Shown: positions 6,780 through 48,770, counted from the first letter of the stretch. The stretch is DNA of 64,000 bases from a bacterium (GCA_037446635.1 JBBIIG010000004.1:100859-164858); one strand, 5' to 3'. Numbers and translations: made by a program. The notes: a model not told the origin generated them from the sequence alone.

Positions 6780-7047
6780 AAATGTCATTGCGAGGCGCTT
6801 TTTGCCTGCCCGCCAGAGGTTTTAGGCAGGCGGGCCGAAGCAATCTCCTGCGTCACCGAGGGGAGTGCTTCGCTGCAAAGCGCATCTGAGGACACAGGAG
6901 GTGTCATTTCGAACCTCGACGCTTTTAGTCGAGGTTCGAAATCTGGGGAAGCACAGATCAAGCTATGCCAATTTAATTCTGCATACATTCGCTGATACTA
7001 ATCTCCGTCAGATTTCTCGACTCCGCTGCGCTCCGTCGCGAAATGAC
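6780..7047. repeat. Structured intergenic element inside the E1alpha-E1beta spacer, built from nested inverted repeats
   Basis: Perfect palindrome ttcgaacctcgac-gcttttag-gtcgaggttcgaa (~6903-6935); hairpin gcctgcccgcc...ggcaggcgggc (~6805-6833); tgtcatt(g/t)cg at 6783 and 6897 and its reverse complement cgaaatgaca at 7034. Confidence 0.4.
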
Positions 7048-12473: not shown

Positions 12474-12565
12474 ACGTGGAGTAATGGATTGATAGATTAG
12501 TGGATCAGTAATTTCAGTACTCCAGAACTCCATTAATCCATTGATCCATTAATCCACTTTATCCA
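12474..12565. repeat. Family A composite hairpin repeat (8-bp units with a TGGA core, then units with a TCCA core)
   Basis: Left arm gtggagta atggattg atagatta gtggatca ... ; right arm agtactcc agaactcc attaatcc attgatcc attaatcc. Confidence 0.55.
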
Positions 12566-14469: not shown

Positions 14470-14553
14470 ATGTGGAGTAATGGAGTTTTGGATTAATGGA
14501 TCAATGACGAAAAAACTGCATTAATCCATTGATCCATCAATCCACTAATCCAT
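14470..14553. repeat. Family A composite hairpin repeat
   Basis: gtggagtaatggagttttggattaatggatcaatg ... cattaatccattgatccatcaatccactaatccat. Confidence 0.55.
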
Positions 14554-28280: not shown

Positions 28281-29675
28281 GTGCCCCTACGGCTACTCAA
28301 CATGACAACCAACCCAAATCTCGACGAACGACTTCTGAGGCGCCGCAAGGCCCTGGTCACCGGCATGGTGGCGCTGACGGTGCTGGTGCTGTTCGCGGTC
28401 ATCTTCGGCGCGTGGAATTTTCTGCAGCGCATGGAAATTTATCTTGAAGAGGAATTAGGCCGGCGGCTGCTGTCGGTCGCCACGCTGACAGCGAAAGTCA
28501 TCGAATCAACGGACTTCCCATTTTTCGTGGAGTCGGAACGTTACGCGCTGATTTTGCCCTCGCTGCGGGAGGTGCTTAATGGCGTTCACAACGAAAACCA
28601 GTTGCAGGGCGTTTATCTCGTGGACGAAAATTATAAAGTCTTTGCCAGCAGCCGCAATATTTTTCCCTACGGCGAGCGGCTGACGTTTTTGGAAGAAGAC
28701 AGCGCGACCGTGGCGCAAGCCGCGGCCGGCATCCCGGCGGCCGCGCCGATGCAAGTGTTAGAGGGCAACCGTTTCAAAAGCGCGTACGCGCCGGTGTTCG
28801 GGCCGCTGCGCGACGTGGTGGCGATTGTGGTGGTGCAGGCCAGCGCCGATTTTTTCGAACTGTTGGGCGTATTTCAAAGTGGCTTAATTGTCGGCGGCGT
28901 GGTCGGCATCGCGTTGGCGGGGCTGCTGTCGGCGTTTCTGTTTTGGGCGATCGCGCTGCTGGTGAAAACCCACGAGTCGCTGCGACAAAGTGAGCGGCTC
29001 GCCGCGATGGGTCAAATGGCCGCGACCGTGGCGCATGAAATTCGCAATCCACTGGGAATCATCAAAAGCACGGCGGACGTGCTGAACTCAAAATATAATT
29101 CCAAAGAGCAGCCGGATGAGTTGTTTGATTTCATCCCCAGCGAAGTTCGGCGGCTCAACCGGCTGGTGAGCGATTTTCTGACCTTTGCCCGCGACCGGGA
29201 AATCCAACCGCTCGCTAATGATTTGCTGAGTACGGTGAAGAAAAGTCTAAGCTCGCTGGAAGACGAAATGCGCCACGCCAATGTCACACTTCAAACTGAG
29301 TTCGACGAACTGCCACCCGTGCAGCACGACGAAGATGCCGTTAATCAGGTGCTGCTGAATTTGGCGCTCAATGGGATTCAGGCGATGAACGGCGGCGGCG
29401 AAATGACGGTGCGCGTGAAGCGAGATGCTCGCAAAGGCCGGGCGCTGGCGCGCGTGGAGGTGCAGGACAGTGGCTGCGGCATCGACGGCGATCTCGAAAA
29501 AATCTTCGAGCCGTTTTACACCACCAAAACTTCCGGCAGCGGCCTGGGACTGGCCATCTGCAAACGCCTCGTGGAAAAACACGGCGGCTGGATAGAGGTG
29601 GAAAGCGAAAAGGGTCGGGGGACAACGATGCGGGTGTTTTTGCCGGTGGAAAAAAGAAGCCCCTATGAACATTAG
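28281..29675 (+). CDS. Sensor histidine kinase (periplasmic/TM sensor, HisKA, HATPase_c)
   Basis: 464 aa; 2 TM segments; H-box AAMGQMAATVAHEIRNPL; N/G-box ...VQDSGCGI...GSGLGL. Confidence 0.82.
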   Translation: MPLRLLNMTTNPNLDERLLRRRKALVTGMVALTVLVLFAVIFGAWNFLQRMEIYLEEELGRRLLSVATLTAKVIESTDFPFFVESERYALILPSLREVLNGVHNENQLQGVYLVDENYKVFASSRNIFPYGERLTFLEEDSATVAQAAAGIPAAAPMQVLEGNRFKSAYAPVFGPLRDVVAIVVVQASADFFELLGVFQSGLIVGGVVGIALAGLLSAFLFWAIALLVKTHESLRQSERLAAMGQMAATVAHEIRNPLGIIKSTADVLNSKYNSKEQPDELFDFIPSEVRRLNRLVSDFLTFARDREIQPLANDLLSTVKKSLSSLEDEMRHANVTLQTEFDELPPVQHDEDAVNQVLLNLALNGIQAMNGGGEMTVRVKRDARKGRALARVEVQDSGCGIDGDLEKIFEPFYTTKTSGSGLGLAICKRLVEKHGGWIEVESEKGRGTTMRVFLPVEKRSPYEH

Positions 29676-29771
29676 TCAAATAACTCAAATGATTATCATA
29701 CAGTCTTTTTCTTGCGAAGAATCTGTTTATTTCATATTTTCACCAGAATTCCATTTTAAGAAAGGTCAGAG

Positions 29772-30161
29772 ATGACTGATGAAAATGCCGAAGATTCTAA
29801 ATCCGATAAGGTTCCTCAAAAACCGGAAAAGTATGTCGAAAAAACTTTGCTTTCCTCCCTTGAACAAAGATTGGTTGATTCAAAGTCTCCACAAGAAACC
29901 ATTTTATGGACTCAGGTTCGTGGAGAAATAATTCGACAAAACGAAGAAAGTGAGGAACAAAACCATCGGCGGTTATTGGAAAAAATACAATTAATATTTA
30001 AAATGGGGTTCTCAATCATAACTTTCATAGTGGGTACTCTACTTGTATTAAACGGATTTTCTTTTGTGGGGTTATTTATGATCGGAGCCGGGCTTTATGG
30101 ACTGGCCCCAGATTTTGTAAAGAGTTTTTTTAAAAAGCATCCAAGAGGTAAAAATGACTAA
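29772..30161 (+). CDS. Hypothetical small membrane protein (AT-rich island gene 1)
   Basis: 129 aa; acidic N-terminus and two C-terminal TM helices; the local GC is ~38%, against ~58% in the flanks. Confidence 0.4.
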   Translation: MTDENAEDSKSDKVPQKPEKYVEKTLLSSLEQRLVDSKSPQETILWTQVRGEIIRQNEESEEQNHRRLLEKIQLIFKMGFSIITFIVGTLLVLNGFSFVGLFMIGAGLYGLAPDFVKSFFKKHPRGKND

Positions 30162-30795
30162 AACTTTGTCGAATCTTTTTCCGGGAATCTTGCTTGCACT
30201 TCTGAGCGTCTCTCTGCTTTTTCTAGTCAGTAGCTCTAAAACACCATCGGGTGTACAGGAATTATTGATCATTATCGCAGGCATGACTACTCTCGCCGCA
30301 GTCACTGCTTTTCAGAGATTTGTTGAAAATCAAAATCACAATTCTATGATCCAGCTTTCATTTAACGAATTCTTTGTCAGCAGAAGCATTTCCGAGGGAT
30401 TGCCAGAACCGAAAAAAATGGATGTGGAACTTGAGAACATCCAAGAGTCGCCAATTTATCCATGGGATTTAACGCCGGGACAATTGGTTGCTATCGATAA
30501 TTCTTTAGCTTTGGCAAAATTAAGAATGGATATCGAAAAGGAACTCCGTAGAATTGCTTATGAAAACAAGATCGACATCAGGACGCGCCCTCTTGGAGTT
30601 ATCGGTCTCGCGAATGAATTGATAACAGCGCAAATCTTACCGACTTCTTCGCTTGAAGCACTAAAAGAGATCATATCGGCATGTAATCAAGCCATACACG
30701 GAGCAGACGTTTCTGACGAGACCGCCGCCTCTGTGGTAAGAGTCGGTAGTCAGCTCTTGGAACGACTACGTCTGGCCTCGATGAAGAGTAATTAA
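30154..30795 (+). CDS. Membrane-anchored DUF4145/HEPN-like domain protein (AT-rich island gene 2)
   Basis: 213 aa; N-terminal 2 TM; the C-terminus ...RTRPLGVIGLANELITAQILPTSSLEALKEIISACNQAIHG resembles the DUF4145 (HEPN-superfamily) ...IRxxGNxxAH region, with the Arg position substituted. Confidence 0.4.
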   Translation: MTKTLSNLFPGILLALLSVSLLFLVSSSKTPSGVQELLIIIAGMTTLAAVTAFQRFVENQNHNSMIQLSFNEFFVSRSISEGLPEPKKMDVELENIQESPIYPWDLTPGQLVAIDNSLALAKLRMDIEKELRRIAYENKIDIRTRPLGVIGLANELITAQILPTSSLEALKEIISACNQAIHGADVSDETAASVVRVGSQLLERLRLASMKSN

Positions 30796-30901
30796 TGTGA
30801 CGACGTTACTCAAAAATTGGAGAGAAAAGAACAACGATCCCATTCAACGCGTAAGCTCTCGTCCGGATTTAGATTTTTCTAACCCAAACAATCTCACTCC
30901 C

Positions 30902-32257
30902 ATGCCCCAACACACCATCCTCATCATCGACGATGAACCCAAGATGTGCAAAGTGCTGAAATTCGCGCTGGAGCCGGAGGGCTACGCCGTCGCCACGGCG
31001 GAGAACGCAGAAGCCGGCCTCGAGCTGTTTTCCAAAAATTCGTTCGACCTCGTCATCACCGATCTCAAAATGCCGGGCAAAGACGGCCTGCACGTTTTGG
31101 GCGCGGTAAAAAAGCAGCGTCCGGAAACCGAGGTGATCATGATGACCGCCTACGCCACGGCGCAGAACGCCGTCGAGGCCATGAAAAAGGGCGCGTACGA
31201 CTACATCATCAAGCCGTTCGAGATGGATGAGCTGAAGCTCAAAGTCCGCCACATTATGGAAAAGCGCAAGCTGGTGGAAGAAAATGTCCATCTCAAAAAG
31301 GAGTTGAAAAATCGTTACTCTCTCGAAAACATGGTGGGACAAAGCGGCGTCATGCAGGAGGTGTATAAGTTGGTGGAGAAAGTCGCGGGCGCCGACGCTA
31401 CGGTTTTGATTCGCGGGGAAAGCGGCACCGGCAAAGAACTGGTGGCGCAGGCCATCCACCATTTGAGTCCTCGGGCCAGCGAGCCGTTCATCCCGGTAAA
31501 TTGCGCAGCGCTGCCGGACAATCTGCTGGAGAGCGAGCTCTTTGGCCACGAAAAAGGCGCGTTCACCGGCGCGGACAAAATGAAGCCCGGTCGCTTCGAG
31601 TTGGCCGGCGCTGGCACCATCTTTTTGGATGAAATCGGCGACATCTCCCCTTCCACGCAAATCAAGCTGCTGCGCGTTTTGCAGAACAAAACCATTGAGC
31701 GGCTCGGCGGCGTCAAGACCATCGACGTGAAAGCCCGCACGATCTGCGCCACGAATCGCCATCTCGAACAAGCTCTCAAAGATCGCACCTTCCGCGAAGA
31801 TTTGTACTACCGCATCAACGTTTTTCCCATCACCCTCCCTCCGCTGCGCGATCACAAAGAAGATATCCCTGATCTTGTGGCGCACTTTCTCAAGAAATTC
31901 GGCGGCGACGGCGCGGCCATCGATGGCAAAGCGCTGAGCCTGCTGATGAAATATCACTGGCCCGGCAACGTCCGCGAATTAGAAAACACCATTGAGCGGG
32001 CGCTGATTCTTTCCGGCACAGGCAAGATTCACGAGCAGGACATTCCGCCGCACATCCGCACTCTGCCTTCGACGGCGGTGGGAAGCGACTCAATTGAAAT
32101 TCCCAAAGAAGGACTCTCGTTGGAAGAGGTCGAAAAGAATCTCATTCGCGACGCCATCGCCAAAGCCGGCGGCAACAAAAGCAAAGCCGCCAAATTGCTG
32201 GGCATCACGCGGCGCAAGCTCTACTCGATGATGGAGCGGCTGGGGTTGAGCCTCTGA
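30902..32257 (+). CDS. Sigma-54-dependent response regulator (NtrC family: REC + AAA+ sigma54 activator + Fis-type HTH)
   Basis: MPQHTILIIDDEP... receiver domain; GESGTGKE Walker A; GAFTGA sigma54-contact motif; C-terminal HTH. Confidence 0.9.
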   Translation: MPQHTILIIDDEPKMCKVLKFALEPEGYAVATAENAEAGLELFSKNSFDLVITDLKMPGKDGLHVLGAVKKQRPETEVIMMTAYATAQNAVEAMKKGAYDYIIKPFEMDELKLKVRHIMEKRKLVEENVHLKKELKNRYSLENMVGQSGVMQEVYKLVEKVAGADATVLIRGESGTGKELVAQAIHHLSPRASEPFIPVNCAALPDNLLESELFGHEKGAFTGADKMKPGRFELAGAGTIFLDEIGDISPSTQIKLLRVLQNKTIERLGGVKTIDVKARTICATNRHLEQALKDRTFREDLYYRINVFPITLPPLRDHKEDIPDLVAHFLKKFGGDGAAIDGKALSLLMKYHWPGNVRELENTIERALILSGTGKIHEQDIPPHIRTLPSTAVGSDSIEIPKEGLSLEEVEKNLIRDAIAKAGGNKSKAAKLLGITRRKLYSMMERLGLSL

Positions 32258-32422
32258 GTTACTGGAGTACTGGATTGGTGGATTCGTGAACGAGTACGTA
32301 CAAACCGAAGTGTACTTTTGGGGTCATTTCATTGCCTCTGAAAAAACACTGCTCCAAAAGTGTCCTCTTTAAGTGCGGAATTTACAATTTCATAAAACCC
32401 ACGAGAGTTTCGAGGCCCTCGC

Positions 32423-32438
32423 TGGCACTGGCTTTGCT
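32423..32438 (+). promoter_or_regulatory. Sigma-54 (-24/-12) promoter
   Basis: TGGCAC-tggct-TTGCT matches the TGGCAC-N5-TTGCW consensus and spacing, ~37 nt upstream of the 32475 start codon. Confidence 0.65.
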
Positions 32439-32474
32439 TTTTGGCGGGTCGGTTGTCGTGGAAATTAAAAAATC

Positions 32475-33992
32475 ATGTTCAAATTCGCAGTTAAAATTTC
32501 GCTAATTATCATCTGCCTCTGCTCAATAGCCTTCGCGCAAAATCCCAACCTCGGTGAGTTGCGCAGTCTGCTGGCACGGCTCGACGTCGAGCTGGAAAAA
32601 GCGCGGGACTTAATCCGCTCGTTTGACAACCGCGACGCCCAGGTTTTACTCGCCGAGACAGAAAATCTCCGCAACCAAGCAGCCGACATCCTCGCGAAGT
32701 CCGACCCCCGCCCTGCGGAATTGCTCGAGGCTCGGCGTCATCTCCAAGCCGCGCGCATGAAATTAGAACAAGCTGTCAAACTCACTCTGGAAGGCACCAT
32801 CAGAAGGTGGCGCAGTCGGCTGGAGCAGCTCCTGCAGCGGGCGGATCAGGAGGTCATTGGCAGCAACCACCCGGAGGCGGAGCGGCTGCTGCAATTGGCC
32901 AAGCAGCACCGCGACGCGGCCGATCGCGAGCTGAGCAATCGCGCGGTGCAAAAAGCGCTCGAGCATCTGCGGGTGGCGGTCAACTTAACGGAACAGGCAC
33001 TTGATTTGGCTACTCGCAAGCTTGATGCCTTTCATGAAGAAGGTCGGCGCTTCGATACTCTGCGCGAGCGCGCCCGCGAGCTGGTGGAAAAAAGCTCGAA
33101 CACGCGCGCCCGGGTTATTTTCAACCAGGCCGAAAAAATGGCCGAATCGGCGCTGCAAGCCTTCCGCAACGGCAACCCCCAGCTTTCCAAAAAATTTTAT
33201 AATCAGGCGATTCTGCTTTTGCTGCGGGCAATGGATGTCGCAAAAGGCCAGTCAACAGAAACAGTGGATCAGGTGAGCCTGGCCCTATATCGACTGCGGG
33301 AGTCCATCGACAATTTTAAAAATACGCTCCAACCCAATGCGCCGGCGCGGGTGCAGCTAATTGTCGAAAGAGCCCGGCGGCTGGCGACGGAAGCGGAGTT
33401 GGCGGCGCAGCAAGGCCGCAGCCACGAAGCGCTTTGGAAAATCGAACTGGCAGAAAGCTTGGTGAAGCGTGCGCAGCGTTTGGCAAACGATCGCGGCGGC
33501 GGAAGATTGGCCAATCGCATCGCCGAGGAAATTGAAAATACCCGGCAGGACATCGTGGACGTCCGCGGCGATTTGAGCCTCGAAACTTCCCCCGACGCCG
33601 AAATTCTCGTGAGCATGGCCGAGCTCGCCCTCGCCAAAGGGGAGCAGGCGGCGACGGCCGGCGCCGACCGTTTCGCTCTGGAAGCGGTGCTCGTCGCCCA
33701 GCGCCTCCTCACCAAAGCCGAGCGCATTTTGAATAAACAGGACGTCAACGGTTTCTCGAAAGAGCGCGTGGAAGCGCGGCTGGCGCAGTTGGATGAGGCG
33801 ATGGCCGAATCCGAAAGCCGCATCGATTTGGCGAAAGATGAATGGGCGCGCCGGCTGCTGCTGAGCGCAAAAGAGTTTCGGCGATTGGCAGCCGAATCGC
33901 TGCAAAAAGGGAATTATCACGCCGCCGACGAAGGCGTGCAAGTGGCGTTCGATCTGCTCAGGAAGAGTTTAAAAAATGTCCCGAACAATTAA
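32475..33992 (+). CDS. Secreted alpha-helical tandem-repeat protein (hypothetical)
   Basis: 505 aa; signal peptide MFKFAVKISLIIICLCSIAFA; 6-7 degenerate ~60-aa helical repeats, each with an ...A(E/R)xLL...A...L...A... pattern. Confidence 0.5.
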   Translation: MFKFAVKISLIIICLCSIAFAQNPNLGELRSLLARLDVELEKARDLIRSFDNRDAQVLLAETENLRNQAADILAKSDPRPAELLEARRHLQAARMKLEQAVKLTLEGTIRRWRSRLEQLLQRADQEVIGSNHPEAERLLQLAKQHRDAADRELSNRAVQKALEHLRVAVNLTEQALDLATRKLDAFHEEGRRFDTLRERARELVEKSSNTRARVIFNQAEKMAESALQAFRNGNPQLSKKFYNQAILLLLRAMDVAKGQSTETVDQVSLALYRLRESIDNFKNTLQPNAPARVQLIVERARRLATEAELAAQQGRSHEALWKIELAESLVKRAQRLANDRGGGRLANRIAEEIENTRQDIVDVRGDLSLETSPDAEILVSMAELALAKGEQAATAGADRFALEAVLVAQRLLTKAERILNKQDVNGFSKERVEARLAQLDEAMAESESRIDLAKDEWARRLLLSAKEFRRLAAESLQKGNYHAADEGVQVAFDLLRKSLKNVPNN

Positions 33993-34027
33993 CCTGAATC
34001 GTAACGAAATCTCAATTGCCGCGACGC

Positions 34028-34172
34028 GGATTAATAGATCAATGGATTAATGAAGTTTGGCGCAGAGCGACAGGCGTGGAGCGTAGAGCTTCAGATACCG
34101 ATCCGCTTCGCGGAAAAGAGCATGGTGCGCTTCATCCACCACTCCATCAATCCATTACTCCACAAGTGATAA
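34028..34172. repeat. Family A composite hairpin repeat with an extended GC-rich centre
   Basis: ggattaatagatcaatggattaatgaag ... (centre) ... cttcatccaccactccatcaatccattactccac. Confidence 0.5.
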
Positions 34173-34434
34173 AAAGGGGGTGATAACTAAAGAACAAGTT
34201 GGCTGTTGCAGTTTATCGTTGGAAAAAGAAAACAAAAAACCCCGCCCTGCCTGTCCGCTTGGCGGATCCGCTTCGCATGCCTGTGCAGGCAGGCGGACGC
34301 AGGCAAATGGAAATCGTTGACTGGGTCAAAGTTAAACGATTTCCGCAAGACGGGGCAAGAAAACAACCGCAATGTAAATCAGACCGCGAAATTTGTCAAA
34401 CAAATTTTTCAGCGGATTTCAAGGAGGTACGCAA

Positions 34435-37400
34435 TGTTTAAACTGAAAACAACTCTGATCGTTTTATTGGGCTTGCTGTTCGTTGGGCCGTTTTCGACGG
34501 CGCTGCAGGCCCAGCCACAGGACGTGGACGCCGTTGTGACTCCCGATGAAATAGAAATTGCCGTGGGCGGCAGCGTTCAATTAGAGGTCTTTGCGTTTAC
34601 GATCGGTGCCGCCGGGCGCACCCCGGTGGACGCCGCCAGCATCCAGTTCACCGTTGAACCGGATTCCATCGGCGCCGTTTCCGAAGACGGATTTTTTGTT
34701 GCCGGCCGGCATGTGGGCACCGCCTTCATCAAAGTTCGGATTGTGGTTGGCGATCGCGTCATCGAAAAGGTGGTCGTCATCATCATTGGCCATTTGCCGC
34801 GCCCATTTTTTGACGCCGCGGTCGTGCCGCAGCGGGCGCTGGTTCCCATTGGCGGCCAGCAGCAGTTTGAAGCGGTGGTGCGAAAGCCCAACGGCGACGT
34901 AGTGGAACCCGAACACGTGCGCTGGGAAGTCATTCCGTCGCATCTCGGCGAGATTAGCGACGACGGCTTGTTCACCGCTGGGAACGAAATCGGGCAGGGC
35001 AAAGTCATCGCGATTATTGAGGTCGACAACCTGCGGCTGCGGGCAGCGGCCAACGTTTTTGTCGCGCCGCCGGCCACCGCTGCCATCACCGGCAATGTGA
35101 CCAATGACGATGGTGGCGCCCCCATCGCCGGTGCCCGCGTCAAGGCCATTCTGCTGGGTCGGATTCACTGGGTGGTGCGCGCCGAAACCGACAACCTCGG
35201 CAACTACGAAATCACCGGCCTCGTCCCCGGCGACTACGTGGTGTTTGCCAATGCCCCCGGTTTCATTGGCGAATTTTTTGACAACACCCGCCTCTATCGC
35301 GAAGCCACGGTGATACAATTGGAAGATAATGAAACGCAAGAAAACATCAATTTCGGTTTAAGCGAAGGCGGCAAAATTGCCGGCACGGTGATCGCTGACA
35401 GCGACAGTCTGCCGCTGGCCGATGCGCACGTGGTAGCATTTTTGAGAGTCAACCCGCGCATCGCCCGCCACGCCCTCACCGATGAAAACGGCGATTATTT
35501 GATCGATGGCCTTCCCCCGGGCTCCTATGCCGTAAAAGCCGACGCCGTGGGCTATCACGCCGAATTTTATAACGACGCCCGCGATCTGGCGGATGCCGAC
35601 CTCATCGATATCGCCGCCAATGAAACCGTCGAAAATATCGACTTTGCACTGGGCATCGCCAGCGCCATCCGCGGCGTAATCACCAGCGCCAAAGACGGCG
35701 CCCCCATCGCCGGCGCGCGCGTGCACGTGTTCGATGCGCCGTTCTTTAATCACCGCCTGCCTATTTTCCGCGAAACCCGCAGCAACGAAAACGGCGAGTA
35801 CATCGTGCAGGTTCGCCCCGGCGGGTACTACGTCTTTGCCGCTGCAGAAGGCTTTAACGGCGAATTTTATGATGACACCCGAGATCTCAGAGAAGCCGAT
35901 CTGGTGCTGGTCTTCCCGGATTCCCACACCACCGGCATCGACTTCGCGCTGACGCCGCGCGGCTCCATCTCCGGCGTGGTGACCGACCAGGCGACCGGAC
36001 TGCCCGTCATCGGCGCGGTGGTGGAAGCCTTCAGCGAAAACCCCGTGATTAACTTCGCCACCACCGTAGCTGGCTTCCGCGCCCGCACCGATTCCTCCGG
36101 CAACTACACCATCAATAATGTTCCAACTGGCAAATACCTGGTGGTAGCCCACGCCCAAGGTTATTTGCCGGAATTTTTTAGAGAAGCCGCCACAAAAGGC
36201 GACGCCGAGTTGGTGTCCGTCGAAGACGATACCGAGGTGCAGGGCATCGATTTCACCCTTGAACGCGGCGGCAGCATTTCCGGATTGGTGGCCTCGGAAG
36301 GCGACAGCTTGCCCATCGCCGGCGCGCTGGTGAAAGTTTTTGCCTCCAATAATCGCCGGCACCTGCGCACCTTCACCGGCAACGACGGCGCCTATCGCGT
36401 GGATGGCCTCCCCACCGGCGTTTATTTCGTGCAGGTGATTGCGCGGGGATTTTTCTCTGAATTTTATGACAACGCCCGCGGCCTGGCAAACGCCACCCCT
36501 GTCGAAGTGACCGCCCCGGATGAAACCGATAGCATCGATGTTTATTTGGAAAAGAAAGAGCGCCGGCGCGGCACCATCGCTGGGCGGGTGGTTTCGGAAG
36601 TGGATGAAACCCCCATCTTCGGCGCGCTAGTGATCGCGGTGCGGCCCAGCCTGCGTTTCCCTCATTTCGCATTTACTGATCCGGACGGCAACTACGAAAT
36701 CACTGACCTGGCTCCGGGACGGTACCATGTTTTCGCCTGGGCCGAAGGCTTCCTCGGCGAATTCTTTGATGACGCCGAACGATTCCGCGACTCCGACCCG
36801 GTTTTCGTAGAATCCAATCAAGTCACCGGCGGCATCGACTTCGAGCTGGCGCCGCGCGAACAAACCGGCATTTACATCGTCCGTGGGAAAATTGTCGCGG
36901 CGAATATGGGCAACGGTTTGACTGCCGAGGGTCCCATTGAAGGCGCGCTGGTTCACGCCAAAACCAACGGCGTCATTGAAGCCAACGCGGTAACCGACGC
37001 CAACGGCGAGTACGTTTTCTTTGACCTGCCGGCGGGCGTGTATGAAATTGAGGCCACGGCCGCGGGCTACGAGGACGCCGCTTTTGCCGCGGCGGTCCCC
37101 GTAAGCGAAGGTCAGGACGCGGAGAACATCAATCTCACGATGACCATCGATAACGTCACCGGCGTCGAGGACGACGGCGGCGCGCTGCCGGAAAAATTCG
37201 CGCTGTTCCAAAACTATCCGAACCCCTTCAACCCGCAAACCACCATCAAATACCAGCTCGCTCAGCCTGCCGAAGTGACGCTGAAGATTTTCAACGTCCT
37301 CGGCCAGCAAGTCCGAACGCTGGTGAACAAACAGCAACCGGCGGGAACGTATTCGGTGCAGTGGGACGGCGCAGATGACCTCGGCCGCCAGGTCGCGTCC

Positions 37401-37472
37401 GGAATTTACATCTTCCAAATTAGCGCCGGCGACGCCTTTAAAGTCTCGAAACGAATGCTGCTTTTGAAGTAA
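34435..37472 (+). CDS. Giant secreted protein: signal peptide, Big_2-like Ig domains, ~9 carboxypeptidase-regulatory-like domain repeats, T9SS type A C-terminal sorting domain
   Basis: The start MFKLKTTLIVLLGL follows an aaggagg RBS. It has repeated ...ITG.V......PIAGA.V......TD..G.Y.I..L..G.Y...A...G...EF(Y/F)D... modules. The C-terminus reads NYPNPFNPQTTIKYQL...IFNVLGQQVRTL...GIYIFQI...KRMLLLK. Confidence 0.7.
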
Positions 37473-37482
37473 AAGGCTAAAC

Positions 37483-37529
37483 GTGCCACGCACAAGTGCC
37501 ACGCACTTCAAAAGTGCGTGGCACTTTAT
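37483..37529 (+). terminator. Hairpin terminator downstream of the giant T9SS protein gene
   Basis: gtgccacgcac-ttcaaaa-gtgcgtggcac is a perfect 11-bp stem followed by tttat; an additional direct copy of the left arm lies just upstream. Confidence 0.55.
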
Positions 37530-37729
37530 AAGACACATAAAAAGGGGGTCGGGTGCAAATCAGAAGAGCGAGTGGTCTCCTCATCCGGCCCCCTTAAAAA
37601 ACTTCGTGCTCTTTGCACTAACCGCAAAGAACGCAATGCTGACGCAAAGGATGCTAAAAAATTGGCGTTGAAATTCAATAAAAGAATTTTAAATTGGGTA
37701 AAATTCATGAATCATCGTCTGGAGGGTGA

Positions 37730-37828
37730 ATGAGCAAGCAGTACAATCGAGTTGAAAAAAGGCGGCGGCGCTTGCGGCGCATCAAACGGCAGCGTGAGCG
37801 AATCAAGGCCGCGGCCAAATCGAAGTAA
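37730..37828 (+). CDS. Candidate 32-aa highly basic small protein
   Basis: MSKQYNRVEKRRRRLRRIKRQRERIKAAAKSK; ggaggg RBS 4 nt upstream; followed by the stem-loop acgccgcccctc...gagggcggcgt (37837-37870). Confidence 0.3.
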   Translation: MSKQYNRVEKRRRRLRRIKRQRERIKAAAKSK

Positions 37829-37988
37829 TGCCGGAAACGCCGCCCCTCTACCACCAAAGGAGGGCGGCGTTGAATTCATCCGATGGTACTCGCAGTGCAC
37901 TCAGCAGCTAAAGTAATAAGCCCGAAAAACAAAGAGGGGAAATGGATGTTAAAATCAGCAGTCAAAATTTTATAAACAATATGGCTCG

Positions 37989-39659
37989 ATGTCCATTGGC
38001 GTGGAAAAACTTTTTAGACCCCAATCCCTCTCGATTCTTGGCTTTCTTGCGCTCTTCGCGCTAAACGGCGCGCTCTCCAGCCAGGAACTTCAAAACCCCC
38101 AGTCTATTGCCGCAATCGATTCAATCACCGTGAATGAAAGCGAACACGCGCTTTATGAAATCGAGCGCCTGCGCTTCGAACGCTGGGTCATCGCCAACAC
38201 CGAAAAATTAACCGACCCGCTGTTGCTGAAAGAAATCGTGCGGCTGAAAAAAGAGGCCGACGCCTTTGCCGAAAAGGACGATTTCACCCTGGCGCTCATT
38301 TGGATGGAAACCATTTGGGACTTATTGAAACCGGACAGCTCACAGACCAGCAGCAACGAGTTGAGCTCAGATTTGGTGAACGATTTTGCCGGCGGCCCTC
38401 TCCTGGAGCCTTCCCCAAAATTCCGCTGGACGAAAGAACTCGTCACCGGCATCGACGTGTGGCGGCAGGAATTTCAATTCACGTTTTTCGAAGGCGACAG
38501 CTCTTTCCTCGAAGGCAGCGGCAATCCTTATTCCGGCGTGCGCGCCGTGTTCGAATACAACCCAAACGCCCGGCAATCCTTCCAGACGCTGGCGTTTTTC
38601 AAATACAGCCGCGATTATCTCGCCGGCGATCTGGAAATCCGCTTGCGAAATCCGCTGGGCCAAAACTCGGCGTGGCGGCTGGAAAACCGATTCGAGGGCT
38701 CCTCGTTTTATCGCGACTTCGACTTAAAATATTTACAGAACCGCACCACGCTCGCTTTCGATTTGCGGCGGCTGGGGCCCCTCGCCATCGATCTCAAAGA
38801 AGAATTTCAGTTGCGAAATTACGCGGACAGCGGCAGCACATATCCAAATTACTACCACAACACACTCAGTGGATTAGCGAAAATTTACACCAACCTCGGC
38901 TCCTATTTGGGCGCCGGCTACCGCAACACGGTGCGCGGACATCCGGATTTTAAAACCAACGACTACTTTGAAAACCGTTTTGAGTTTTCATGGTATCAGA
39001 CGTTGGGCCGCGAGTTGAGCTTCTCCGTCGTAAACGACCTGTACTTTCGCGAGTACCCGAACGCGCCGGCCGATACCATCTTTCAGGATTATCGCGAAAA
39101 CTATTTTCGCACGGATGTCAAAATTCCGTTCACCGCCATTTGGGGAGCTGAAATAGAAGGCAGCGTCACCAGCCGCGATTACAAAAATCTGAACGTGAAT
39201 TTTCCGGACAATACCCTCTGGGAAATCGAACCGCGGCTGTATCTCAAAATAGGAAGGGACTGGCAAGTTTCCGCCGGCGGATACTACAGCGAGCTGAATC
39301 ACCAGAAATTTCCGCTGGCCTCCACCGCGGACGCCGCCAGCATTTTATTCGAAGATTACGAAATGTACGGCCCAACTTTCGCGATCGAATTTTTTAAAAT
39401 CAACGGCGTCATGTTCAACATCCAGCAATCTTTTTTATGGCAGCGCTACCCTACGAGCCGGCAGCGCAATGTCACTAATCTCTCGGTTTACTCGGACCGC
39501 CAAATTTATTCCATTCTTTTTTTTCTAACCTGGAACGTCTCCGCGCGCTGGCGTTTCGCCGCCCTTGCCAACATGGATGACGACCGCAGCCGCCAGCAGG
39601 GCGACAGCAGCGACTCCAACAACACCCTGGTGGGGCTGGAGATCAATTATTCCTTTTGA
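37989..39659 (+). CDS. Hypothetical outer-membrane beta-barrel-like protein
   Basis: 556 aa; signal-like N-terminus; a helical N-terminal region, then a Y/F/N/G-rich segment of alternating hydrophobics ending in a C-terminal ...LEINYSF (terminal Phe). Confidence 0.4.
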   Translation: MSIGVEKLFRPQSLSILGFLALFALNGALSSQELQNPQSIAAIDSITVNESEHALYEIERLRFERWVIANTEKLTDPLLLKEIVRLKKEADAFAEKDDFTLALIWMETIWDLLKPDSSQTSSNELSSDLVNDFAGGPLLEPSPKFRWTKELVTGIDVWRQEFQFTFFEGDSSFLEGSGNPYSGVRAVFEYNPNARQSFQTLAFFKYSRDYLAGDLEIRLRNPLGQNSAWRLENRFEGSSFYRDFDLKYLQNRTTLAFDLRRLGPLAIDLKEEFQLRNYADSGSTYPNYYHNTLSGLAKIYTNLGSYLGAGYRNTVRGHPDFKTNDYFENRFEFSWYQTLGRELSFSVVNDLYFREYPNAPADTIFQDYRENYFRTDVKIPFTAIWGAEIEGSVTSRDYKNLNVNFPDNTLWEIEPRLYLKIGRDWQVSAGGYYSELNHQKFPLASTADAASILFEDYEMYGPTFAIEFFKINGVMFNIQQSFLWQRYPTSRQRNVTNLSVYSDRQIYSILFFLTWNVSARWRFAALANMDDDRSRQQGDSSDSNNTLVGLEINYSF

Positions 39660-45246: not shown

Positions 45247-45292
45247 ATGGATTGATGAATTAATGTCTCTGCCTTCATTAATCCATCAATCT
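45247..45292. repeat. Family A hairpin between convergent genes
   Basis: tggattgatgaattaatg-tctctgcc-ttcattaatccatcaatc. Confidence 0.55.
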
Positions 45293-48639: not shown

Positions 48640-48770
48640 AGGTGGAGTATTGGAGTATTGGAGTATTGGAGTATTGGAGTATTGGAGTATTGGATCAATG
48701 TCAAACTTCATCCATTATCTCATTGATCCATTCATCCATCAATCCAGTACTCCATTACTCCAGCACTCCA
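48640..48770. repeat. Family A composite repeat: 5x tandem tattggag octamers, then 8x TCCA-core octamers
   Basis: ggtggag tattggag x4 tattggat caatg ... tcatccat tatctcat tgatccat tcatccat caatccag tactccat tactccag cactccac; sits in the glnK-glnA spacer. Confidence 0.6.

Follow-up and report, generated by a model that had tools for sequence, protein, structure and literature searches.

The 64-kb stretch of DNA analysed here (the window) derives from an uncultured bacterium of candidate division KSB1 and carries, all on the plus strand, a sensor histidine kinase gene, the gene of a sigma-54-dependent response regulator of the NtrC class, one encoding a helical-repeat protein of 505 residues that is exported (H505) and one encoding a large cargo protein of the type IX secretion system (T9SS), named CarbT9. 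Between the regulator and H505 genes lie a -24/-12 promoter element and a candidate enhancer dyad, whereas the gap between the H505 and CarbT9 genes holds a putative promoter and a structured hairpin on the minus strand (Table 1). The region was compared with 30-odd loci fetched around relatives of H505, some of them through a metagenome scan seeded with an alignment (A1). The named genomes among these loci (numbered with the prefix L) are metagenome-assembled genomes (MAGs) of candidate division KSB1 or unclassified MAGs, and the promoter count rests on those 21 distinct loci in which the 5′ side of the H505 gene is covered. The order kinase-regulator-H505 is retained in at least 17 loci. The KSB1 literature mentions neither sigma-54 nor a T9SS.

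The -24/-12 promoter and candidate enhancer dyad of the H505 gene

The original prediction placed a TGGCAC-N5-TTGCT promoter between the regulator gene and the open reading frame (ORF) that starts at 32475, and this element has held up well. The sequence TGGCACTGGCTTTGCT (TGGCAC-TGGCT-TTGCT), located between the regulator stop codon (32257) and the H505 ATG (32475), is the sole exact match to TGGCAC-N5-TTGCW in the window, and its GG (32424-32425) and GC (32436-32437) are exactly 10 nt apart, the spacing characteristic of sigma-54 promoters. As 0.11 exact matches are expected by chance per 64 kb, a single match is, taken alone, suggestive and not decisive. A -24/-12 element is found in all 21 distinct loci, 37-70 nt 5′ of the ATG of the H505 gene, with the consensus tGGcA-N5-tTTGC, and neither the 15 nt before nor the 25 nt after it show conservation across loci. 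The element persists even where H505 identity has fallen to 38% (within KSB1) or 30% (locus L019). In two loci (L016 and L019) it is present with no regulator gene adjacent, which argues that it belongs to the H505 gene. These observations support a real, conserved promoter of the H505 gene, from which transcription is predicted to start at ∼32449, ∼12 nt 3′ of the GC. In two remoter H505 relatives (∼22% identity; L034 and L035) no clear -24/-12 element was found. L034 carries a perfect TGTAC-N6-GTACA palindrome (∼6783-6798) and, ∼115 bp 3′ of it (∼6905-6920), the sequence TGGAAT-N5-TTGAT, a -24/-12-like element in which GC is now GA; this could be a sigma-54 promoter that has decayed or is atypical.

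A search of the region 5′ of 32423 for activator sites, as proposed in the original prediction, yielded an 18-bp dyad, GTACAAACCGAAGTGTAC (GTACA-N8-TGTAC), centred 117.5 bp upstream of the -24 GG. With up to one mismatch allowed it is a single copy in the window, and outside the homologous position the window and all loci together have only two one-mismatch chance matches. All loci of the KSB1 lineage carry it once, at the homologous place 114-130 bp 5′ of the -24 GG, with a spacer of N7 or N9 in place of N8 in a few of them. A third TGTAC half-site lies 6 nt further upstream in most loci and forms TGT-N10-ACA with the central half-site. Because the dyad is single in the window and holds the same position in all KSB1-lineage loci, and since it is conserved together with the promoter at the distance of ∼80-150 bp typical of enhancers, it is likely to be an enhancer, i.e. 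a candidate upstream activating sequence (UAS). Its position suggests the adjacent regulator as the protein that would bind it: the distance from the end of the regulator gene to the promoter is 166 bp in the window and ∼190-660 bp elsewhere, and the dyad lies between gene and promoter in all of the at least 17 loci. An inverted repeat considered first as the enhancer (ACTTTTGG-N32-CCAAAAGT, 32314-32361) is not conserved even in a 92%-identical relative (L007) and was dropped. Upstream of the CarbT9 gene, the kinase gene and the gene of a 556-residue protein beyond CarbT9, neither a second dyad nor a second sigma-54 promoter was found, scattered matches lying within coding regions, and the locally visible regulon thus consists of a single promoter.

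The two-component genes and the exported products

The kinase shows HisKA (1.5e-14) and HATPase_c (1.2e-28) domains in Pfam that reach residue 457 of 464, preceded by a sensor region with two transmembrane segments that matches no Pfam family. Its counterparts at this position in related loci share 62-92% identity with it over the whole length. The original prediction regarded the kinase as interrupted by an AT-rich cassette, a view that does not survive: the ORF is intact, and the cassette lies between the kinase and regulator genes. Its GC content is 0.40-0.41 against ∼0.57 in the flanks, its ORFs match nothing in Pfam, NCBIfam or PADLOC and give one weak match to a membrane protein in PHROG, and it is not part of the sigma-54 switch. 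The junction (29676-30904) is an insertion hot spot with the two-component genes intact on both sides; it holds PIN_3, UbiA and DUF433 genes in L001 (4342-7323), two ORFs of unknown type in L005 (4033-6023) and a 60-residue ORF in L003 (2526-3129), and is empty in L004, L006 and L015.

No protein of the cluster is better conserved than the regulator (73-91% identity across loci), whose domains make it a complete activator of the NtrC class. Pfam detects Response_reg (PF00072, 2.8e-32), Sigma54_activat (PF00158, 3.3e-70), AAA_lid_14 and HTH_8 (PF02954, 4.5e-14), i.e. a REC domain, an AAA+ domain with an intact GAFTGA loop at residue 218, and a Fis-type helix-turn-helix domain. Translation almost certainly starts at M37 (30905), to give 450 residues as in the orthologues. 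In NCBIfam the top match is AtoC (6e-147; 490 bits against an equivalog cut-off of 714), followed by NtrC (436 against 559 bits) and ZraR (1.9e-123; 412 against 760 bits), and a PEP-CTERM regulator is also among the best matches, again below the equivalog cut-off. Since every equivalog score falls short, the protein belongs to the NtrC class without being any of the named regulators. The kinase likewise matches ZraS at 3.4e-61, with 207 bits against a cut-off of 479.

H505 begins with a conserved signal peptide (∼residues 1-21) followed by an invariant Q22 at the predicted mature N-terminus. The structure prediction that the original prediction had suggested for this protein gave an AlphaFold model that is entirely helical and locally confident (predicted local distance difference test score, pLDDT, 85), with an overall arrangement that is uncertain at a predicted template modelling score (pTM) of 0.41. 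Comparison of the H505 profile with itself by hhalign yields off-diagonals at ∼80, 157, 236, 320 and 400 residues, which indicates six repeats of ∼80 residues, each a three-helix bundle. The description of an exported, all-helical protein is thus upheld, whereas the 6-7 repeats of ∼60 residues ascribed to it are replaced by six longer ones. An exact look-up found no identical protein on record, and close relatives number ∼20; a full profile search recovered 650 cluster representatives at E<1e-3, nearly all of ∼500 residues. H505 matches no Pfam family. LTXXQ/Metal_resist (PF07813, PF13801) is matched neither by H505 nor by 59 family members, in which only sub-threshold matches to MIT, HEPN, DUF357 and SMBP occur, and a Foldseek search of the model against the PDB returned nothing below E 0.3. 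H505 is most likely to work in the periplasm or the cell envelope.

CarbT9 carries CarboxypepD_reg domains (Pfam, 2e-84) in seven stretches, in which a regular expression for the repeat motif finds four matches and the remaining repeats were matched by eye, together with two Big_2-like immunoglobulin-type domains for which the Pfam Big_2 match is borderline. The C-terminal sorting domain is of type A (TIGR04183, 51.3 bits against a cut-off of 23; PF18962, 41.2 against 27) and the N-terminus is a signal peptide, MFKLKTTLIVLLGLLFVGPFSTALQAQ, so that the protein has the marks of a type A T9SS cargo. The original prediction had this composition right, with about nine repeats where Pfam counts seven. 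An orthologue of CarbT9 follows H505 in every locus that reaches far enough, including the distant L019. That the two products form an adhesin-like assembly is conjecture.

The gap between the H505 and CarbT9 genes

The gap measures 440 bp in the window (33993-34433) and 200-440 bp across loci. A scan detected no plus-strand terminator in it, and it has no second sigma-54 promoter, which makes read-through from H505 into CarbT9 possible. On the minus strand, a consensus scan flagged a sigma-70-type promoter (34399-34371, TTGACA-17 nt-TACATT) that points into a hairpin. In 18 loci there is such a promoter, TTGAC(A/T)/TA(C/A)ATT with a spacing of 16-17 nt; its distance to the CarbT9 ATG is invariably 31-38 nt and that to the hairpin 10-190 nt. 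tRNA genes were sought as promoter controls and none were found; the groES gene of L003, which has a CIRCE element (controlling inverted repeat of chaperone expression), was used in their place and shows canonical TTGACA/TATATT promoters to be in use in the lineage. The -35 hexamer of the minus-strand promoter is, in the window's own clade, centred in a near-perfect inverted repeat, AAATTTGTCAAACAAATTT (34386-34404), which could be an operator.

The hairpin spans 60-125 nt, with a closing stem GCCCCGUC/GRCGGGGC, an inner stem GGAAAC/GUUUCC and a loop that contains GGGCC or GCCCAG. The closing stem is GC-rich with 8-9 bp, and the hairpin is followed by T4-T8 in 17 of the 18 loci, the layout of an intrinsic terminator on the minus strand. 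A covariance model (R1) was built from 15 hairpins, those of the window, L001 and L007 being left out of the training, and in 350 kb it found a single match in each locus, the untrained sequences included, with every match on the minus strand. The pairing is strongly supported, as 80.5% of cells pair, a share that drops to 55% or less when the partners are slid, and the covariation exceeds that of 499 of 500 shuffles. At one position of the stem, 13 of the 18 sequences have U.G and four have U-A, and a stem C-G pair has changed to U-A in L004 and L006. These stem pairs and the G.U counts (41 cells when the minus strand is read, 17 when the plus strand is) point to the minus strand. The U-run 3′ of the hairpin likewise exists only on that strand, an A-run preceding the hairpin on the plus strand, and in 10 of 14 loci the minus-strand hairpin is the more stable. 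Rfam 15 gave no match to the hairpin or to the motif described below (33993-34433, both strands, E up to 10), and over 32200-38100 it returned only noise, at the terminator after CarbT9. The gap thus most likely holds a short convergent unit, which is predicted to make a cis-antisense small RNA. There is base complementarity between the hairpin loop (UGGGCC/AGGGCC) and a GGCCCA or GGCCCU that lies between promoter and hairpin in five loci (L005, L010, L015, L016 and L025), of which L005 and L025 differ from each other by an A/U swap. The motif, which could form a pseudoknot with the loop, is missing from the window's own clade.

A further conserved element of the gap is a Shine-Dalgarno (SD)-like motif without an ORF, of family consensus AAGGRGGTGA, which on the minus strand reads UCACCYCCUU, like the 3′ tail of 16S rRNA. 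In nearly all loci it lies 0-45 nt past the stop codon of whichever gene comes before the hairpin. The TGA of the motif is the H505 stop codon in some orthologues, and in L005 the motif is fused with that codon; in L003 it is not matched. Its nine-base core, RGGRGGTGA, occurs twice in the window, and in L003 the groES gene has the ten-base form AAGGAGGTGA as its ribosome-binding site. A small ORF after the motif was considered and rejected as coding, since neither reading frames nor start and stop codons are kept from locus to locus. The motif may be a decoy on the plus-strand mRNA akin to the stabilising SD (STAB-SD) elements discussed below, or part of a read-through antisense RNA. In the window it has been pushed 183 nt from the H505 stop by the insertion of an element resembling repetitive extragenic palindromes (REP) or miniature inverted-repeat transposable elements (MITE). 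This element is specific to this genome, only its centre matching L007, and its inverted ends of ∼30 nt (GGATTAATAGATCAATGGATTAATGAAG...) match 12476-12555, 14471-14552, 48731-48762 and 45273-45292. Three loci have an extra gene of 323 residues, without a family, between H505 and CarbT9 (L004, 11581-12552; L006, 11554-12534; L018, 8834-9763), and the hairpin and SD-like motif lie 3′ of it in L004 and L006 and 5′ of it in L018.

Table 1. Coordinates of the genes and regulatory features in the window.
Feature	Position	Strand	Basis
Sensor histidine kinase gene	28281-29675	+	HisKA and HATPase_c
AT-rich cassette with two ORFs (129 and 213 residues)	29772-30795	+	GC content, kinase-regulator junction
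NtrC-class sigma-54 response regulator, 450 residues	30905-32257	+	Pfam, GAFTGA
Candidate enhancer (UAS) dyad	32298-32315	strand-neutral	Conservation, position
Sigma-54 -24/-12 promoter	32423-32438	+	Consensus, conservation
H505, exported 505-residue helical-repeat protein	32475-33992	+	ORF, signal peptide, model
REP/MITE-like palindromic element	34028-34163	strand-neutral	Repeats within the window
Orphan SD-like motif, AGGGGGTGA	34175-34183	+	Conservation
Structured hairpin followed by U-run	34227-34358	-	Covariance model
Sigma-70-type promoter (putative)	34371-34399	-	Consensus scan, conservation
CarbT9, 1012-residue T9SS cargo protein	34434-37472	+	Pfam, NCBIfam
Hairpin and TTTAT after CarbT9	37494-37531	+	Stem energy
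556-residue protein without a family	37989-39659	+	ORF

Proposed control, related systems and neighbouring genes

We regard it as probable that a two-component switch of the NtrC class drives H505 through sigma-54 and that an antisense unit lies before CarbT9. In this model, the membrane kinase (28281-29675) would phosphorylate the neighbouring activator (30905-32257), which would bind the GTAC-core dyad (32298-32315) and oligomerise. Hydrolysis of ATP, acting through the GAFTGA loop, would then open the closed sigma-54 complex at 32423-32438, and transcription from ∼32449 would run into the H505 gene. The CarbT9 gene would possibly be served by read-through, and such a transcript would have to cross the convergent unit (promoter 34399-34371, hairpin and U-run 34358-34227), which would most likely yield a small cis-antisense RNA that uncouples or damps CarbT9 expression. 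The roles given to H505 and CarbT9 within the switch are putative. A bolder version, in which an undescribed, lineage-wide small RNA, read from a housekeeping promoter in opposition to the sigma-54 transcript, acts together with the orphan SD/16S-tail-like motif to gate the sigma-54 signal to CarbT9 in a two-layer control, is tentative and rather doubtful.

Several observations weigh against the model. The RpoN box is absent from six-frame translations of the window and seven loci (L001, L003-L008), which cover a fraction of each genome, and sigma-54 itself is accordingly a presumed component of this genome; its presence is strongly argued by the GG/GC doublets conserved at exact spacing and by an activator with intact GAFTGA at 73-91% identity. 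The entire region, including housekeeping genes (dapF and an acid phosphatase), is syntenic in the KSB1 lineage, which makes adjacency weak evidence for cognate control. For H505, searches of Pfam and of PDB sequences and folds return only generic helical bundles. In L018 the extra gene splits the hairpin from the promoter motif and no recognisable promoter is found near the hairpin, and the fixed distance of 31-38 nt between the minus-strand promoter and the CarbT9 start could mean that the motif is read on the plus strand by some factor.

The strongest alternative, which we hold to be possible and, on balance, not probable, is that H505 and CarbT9 form one sigma-54 operon in which the gap hairpin stabilises the plus-strand mRNA and the SD motif is a STAB-SD-like decoy that protects the downstream segment. 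The order and orientation of the two genes are kept in every locus, L019 included, the gap has neither a plus-strand terminator nor a second sigma-54 or clear sigma-70 promoter on that strand, and motif and hairpin move together when the extra gene is inserted (L018 compared with L004 and L006). The strong, ORF-less AAGGRGGTGA also resembles the Bacillus STAB-SD stabilisers, such as that in the leader of Bacillus thuringiensis cry3A (PMC3997798). Both are perfect Shine-Dalgarno sequences without a start codon in an untranslated region upstream of the gene of a secreted protein, which in the case of cry3A is highly expressed (PMC3997798); they differ in phylum, and the motif of the window is tied to the upstream stop codon and the hairpin, not to a mapped transcript start. 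Against a single operon stand the gaps of 200-440 bp and the strand of the hairpin: the U-run follows it on the minus strand only, with the A-run in front of it on the plus strand, the conserved wobble pairs, U.G and G.U, turn into C.A mismatches when the plus strand is read, the minus-strand form is the stabler in 10 of 14 loci, and a consensus sigma-70 promoter faces the hairpin on the minus strand in 18 loci.

It seems improbable that the promoter, while real, is served by another sigma-54 activator and that the adjacent kinase-regulator pair, here merely by synteny, controls other genes. The retention of the promoter in L016 and L019 with no adjacent regulator gene, the equal synteny of the housekeeping genes and the separation of the kinase gene from the regulator gene by a cassette in several genomes are compatible with such a view. 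The dyad, however, is found nowhere else in the window or the loci save for the two one-mismatch chance matches, which leaves no other local target for the regulator, and the arrangement regulator gene-dyad-promoter is seen in all of the at least 17 loci that have the regulator. Finally, a chance -24/-12 match without promoter function, as might be supposed from the at least one exact match in 10 of 100 shuffles of the window, is effectively refuted by its occurrence at the same position in 21 loci with fully diverged flanking intergenic DNA, paired with a conserved dyad at enhancer distance beside the gene of a sigma-54 activator.

The proposed switch, i.e. the kinase, activator, dyad and promoter of H505, may be set beside several characterised systems. 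In Escherichia coli the envelope-stress system ZraS/ZraR-zraP consists of a membrane kinase and an NtrC-class activator that acts at a -24/-12 promoter for an exported all-helical protein. The switch in the window follows the same plan, NCBIfam ranks ZraS and ZraR among the best matches for its kinase and regulator, and the L003 cluster carries a gene of the LTXXQ/Metal_resist (ZraP/CpxP/Spy) family. The window proteins, however, score far under the equivalog cut-offs and the sensor domain belongs to no known family. H505, with 505 residues in six three-helix bundles and no LTXXQ/Metal_resist match, is unlike ZraP, and its gene is co-directional with and downstream of the regulator gene where zraP is divergent. 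In common with NtrB/NtrC-glnAp2 and AtoS/AtoC, the regulator has the architecture REC-AAA+(GAFTGA)-HTH_8 and a dyad ∼100-130 bp upstream of TGGCAC-N5-TTGCW. The differences lie in the dyad sequence, GTACA-N8-TGTAC (TGT-N10-ACA being NifA-like in form only), and in the target, which is an orphan envelope protein and not a metabolic enzyme. For the antisense unit, the nearest parallel is offered by the DonS-type RNAs, cis-encoded antisense small RNAs at the polysaccharide utilisation loci of Bacteroides. Both belong to the Fibrobacteres-Chlorobi-Bacteroidetes (FCB) superphylum and share a housekeeping-type promoter and a short unit, intergenic or 5′ to the gene of a large outer-surface protein, that runs against the operon; no sequence or Rfam relationship was found between them, and the unit of the window, which is predicted only, has a sigma-54-driven gene on one side and a T9SS cargo gene on the other.

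The switch is textbook in kind and very well conserved; its promoter and probable enhancer are now specified, and its target is an orphan. With it, KSB1, a phylum without a cultured member, gains one fully specified circuit (kinase, activator, enhancer, promoter and target) that is rebuildable in a heterologous host, and a regulatory context becomes attached to a large family of exported helical-repeat proteins of ∼500 residues that lacks a Pfam model. The conserved antisense unit is the most interesting lead: if both are expressed, this unit and the orphan SD motif would be a new instance, in the FCB superphylum, of surface-protein genes being controlled at the RNA level.

Downstream of CarbT9, the hairpin at 37494-37531 has a perfect stem of 15 bp (free energy -29.9 kcal/mol) followed by TTTAT and is likely to mark the end of the CarbT9 transcription unit. 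An extremely basic ORF of 32 residues, MSKQYNRVEKRRRRLRRIKRQRERIKAAAKSK (37731-37829), has an SD-like sequence 5′ and a hairpin 3′ of it, and is kept only in the closest relative (L007, 5685-5783, 76% identity). The 556-residue protein matches no Pfam or NCBIfam family and has a signal peptide, a helical N-terminal part of ∼100 residues and a beta-rich remainder that ends in ...LEINYSF and therefore looks like an outer-membrane barrel. The gene of a LiaF-TM membrane protein lies downstream of it. An orthologue of the 556-residue protein is encoded 3′ of CarbT9 in most loci that reach far enough, with variable genes in between, namely DUF1800/DUF1501 in L004 and L006 and the LTXXQ/Metal_resist gene in L003.

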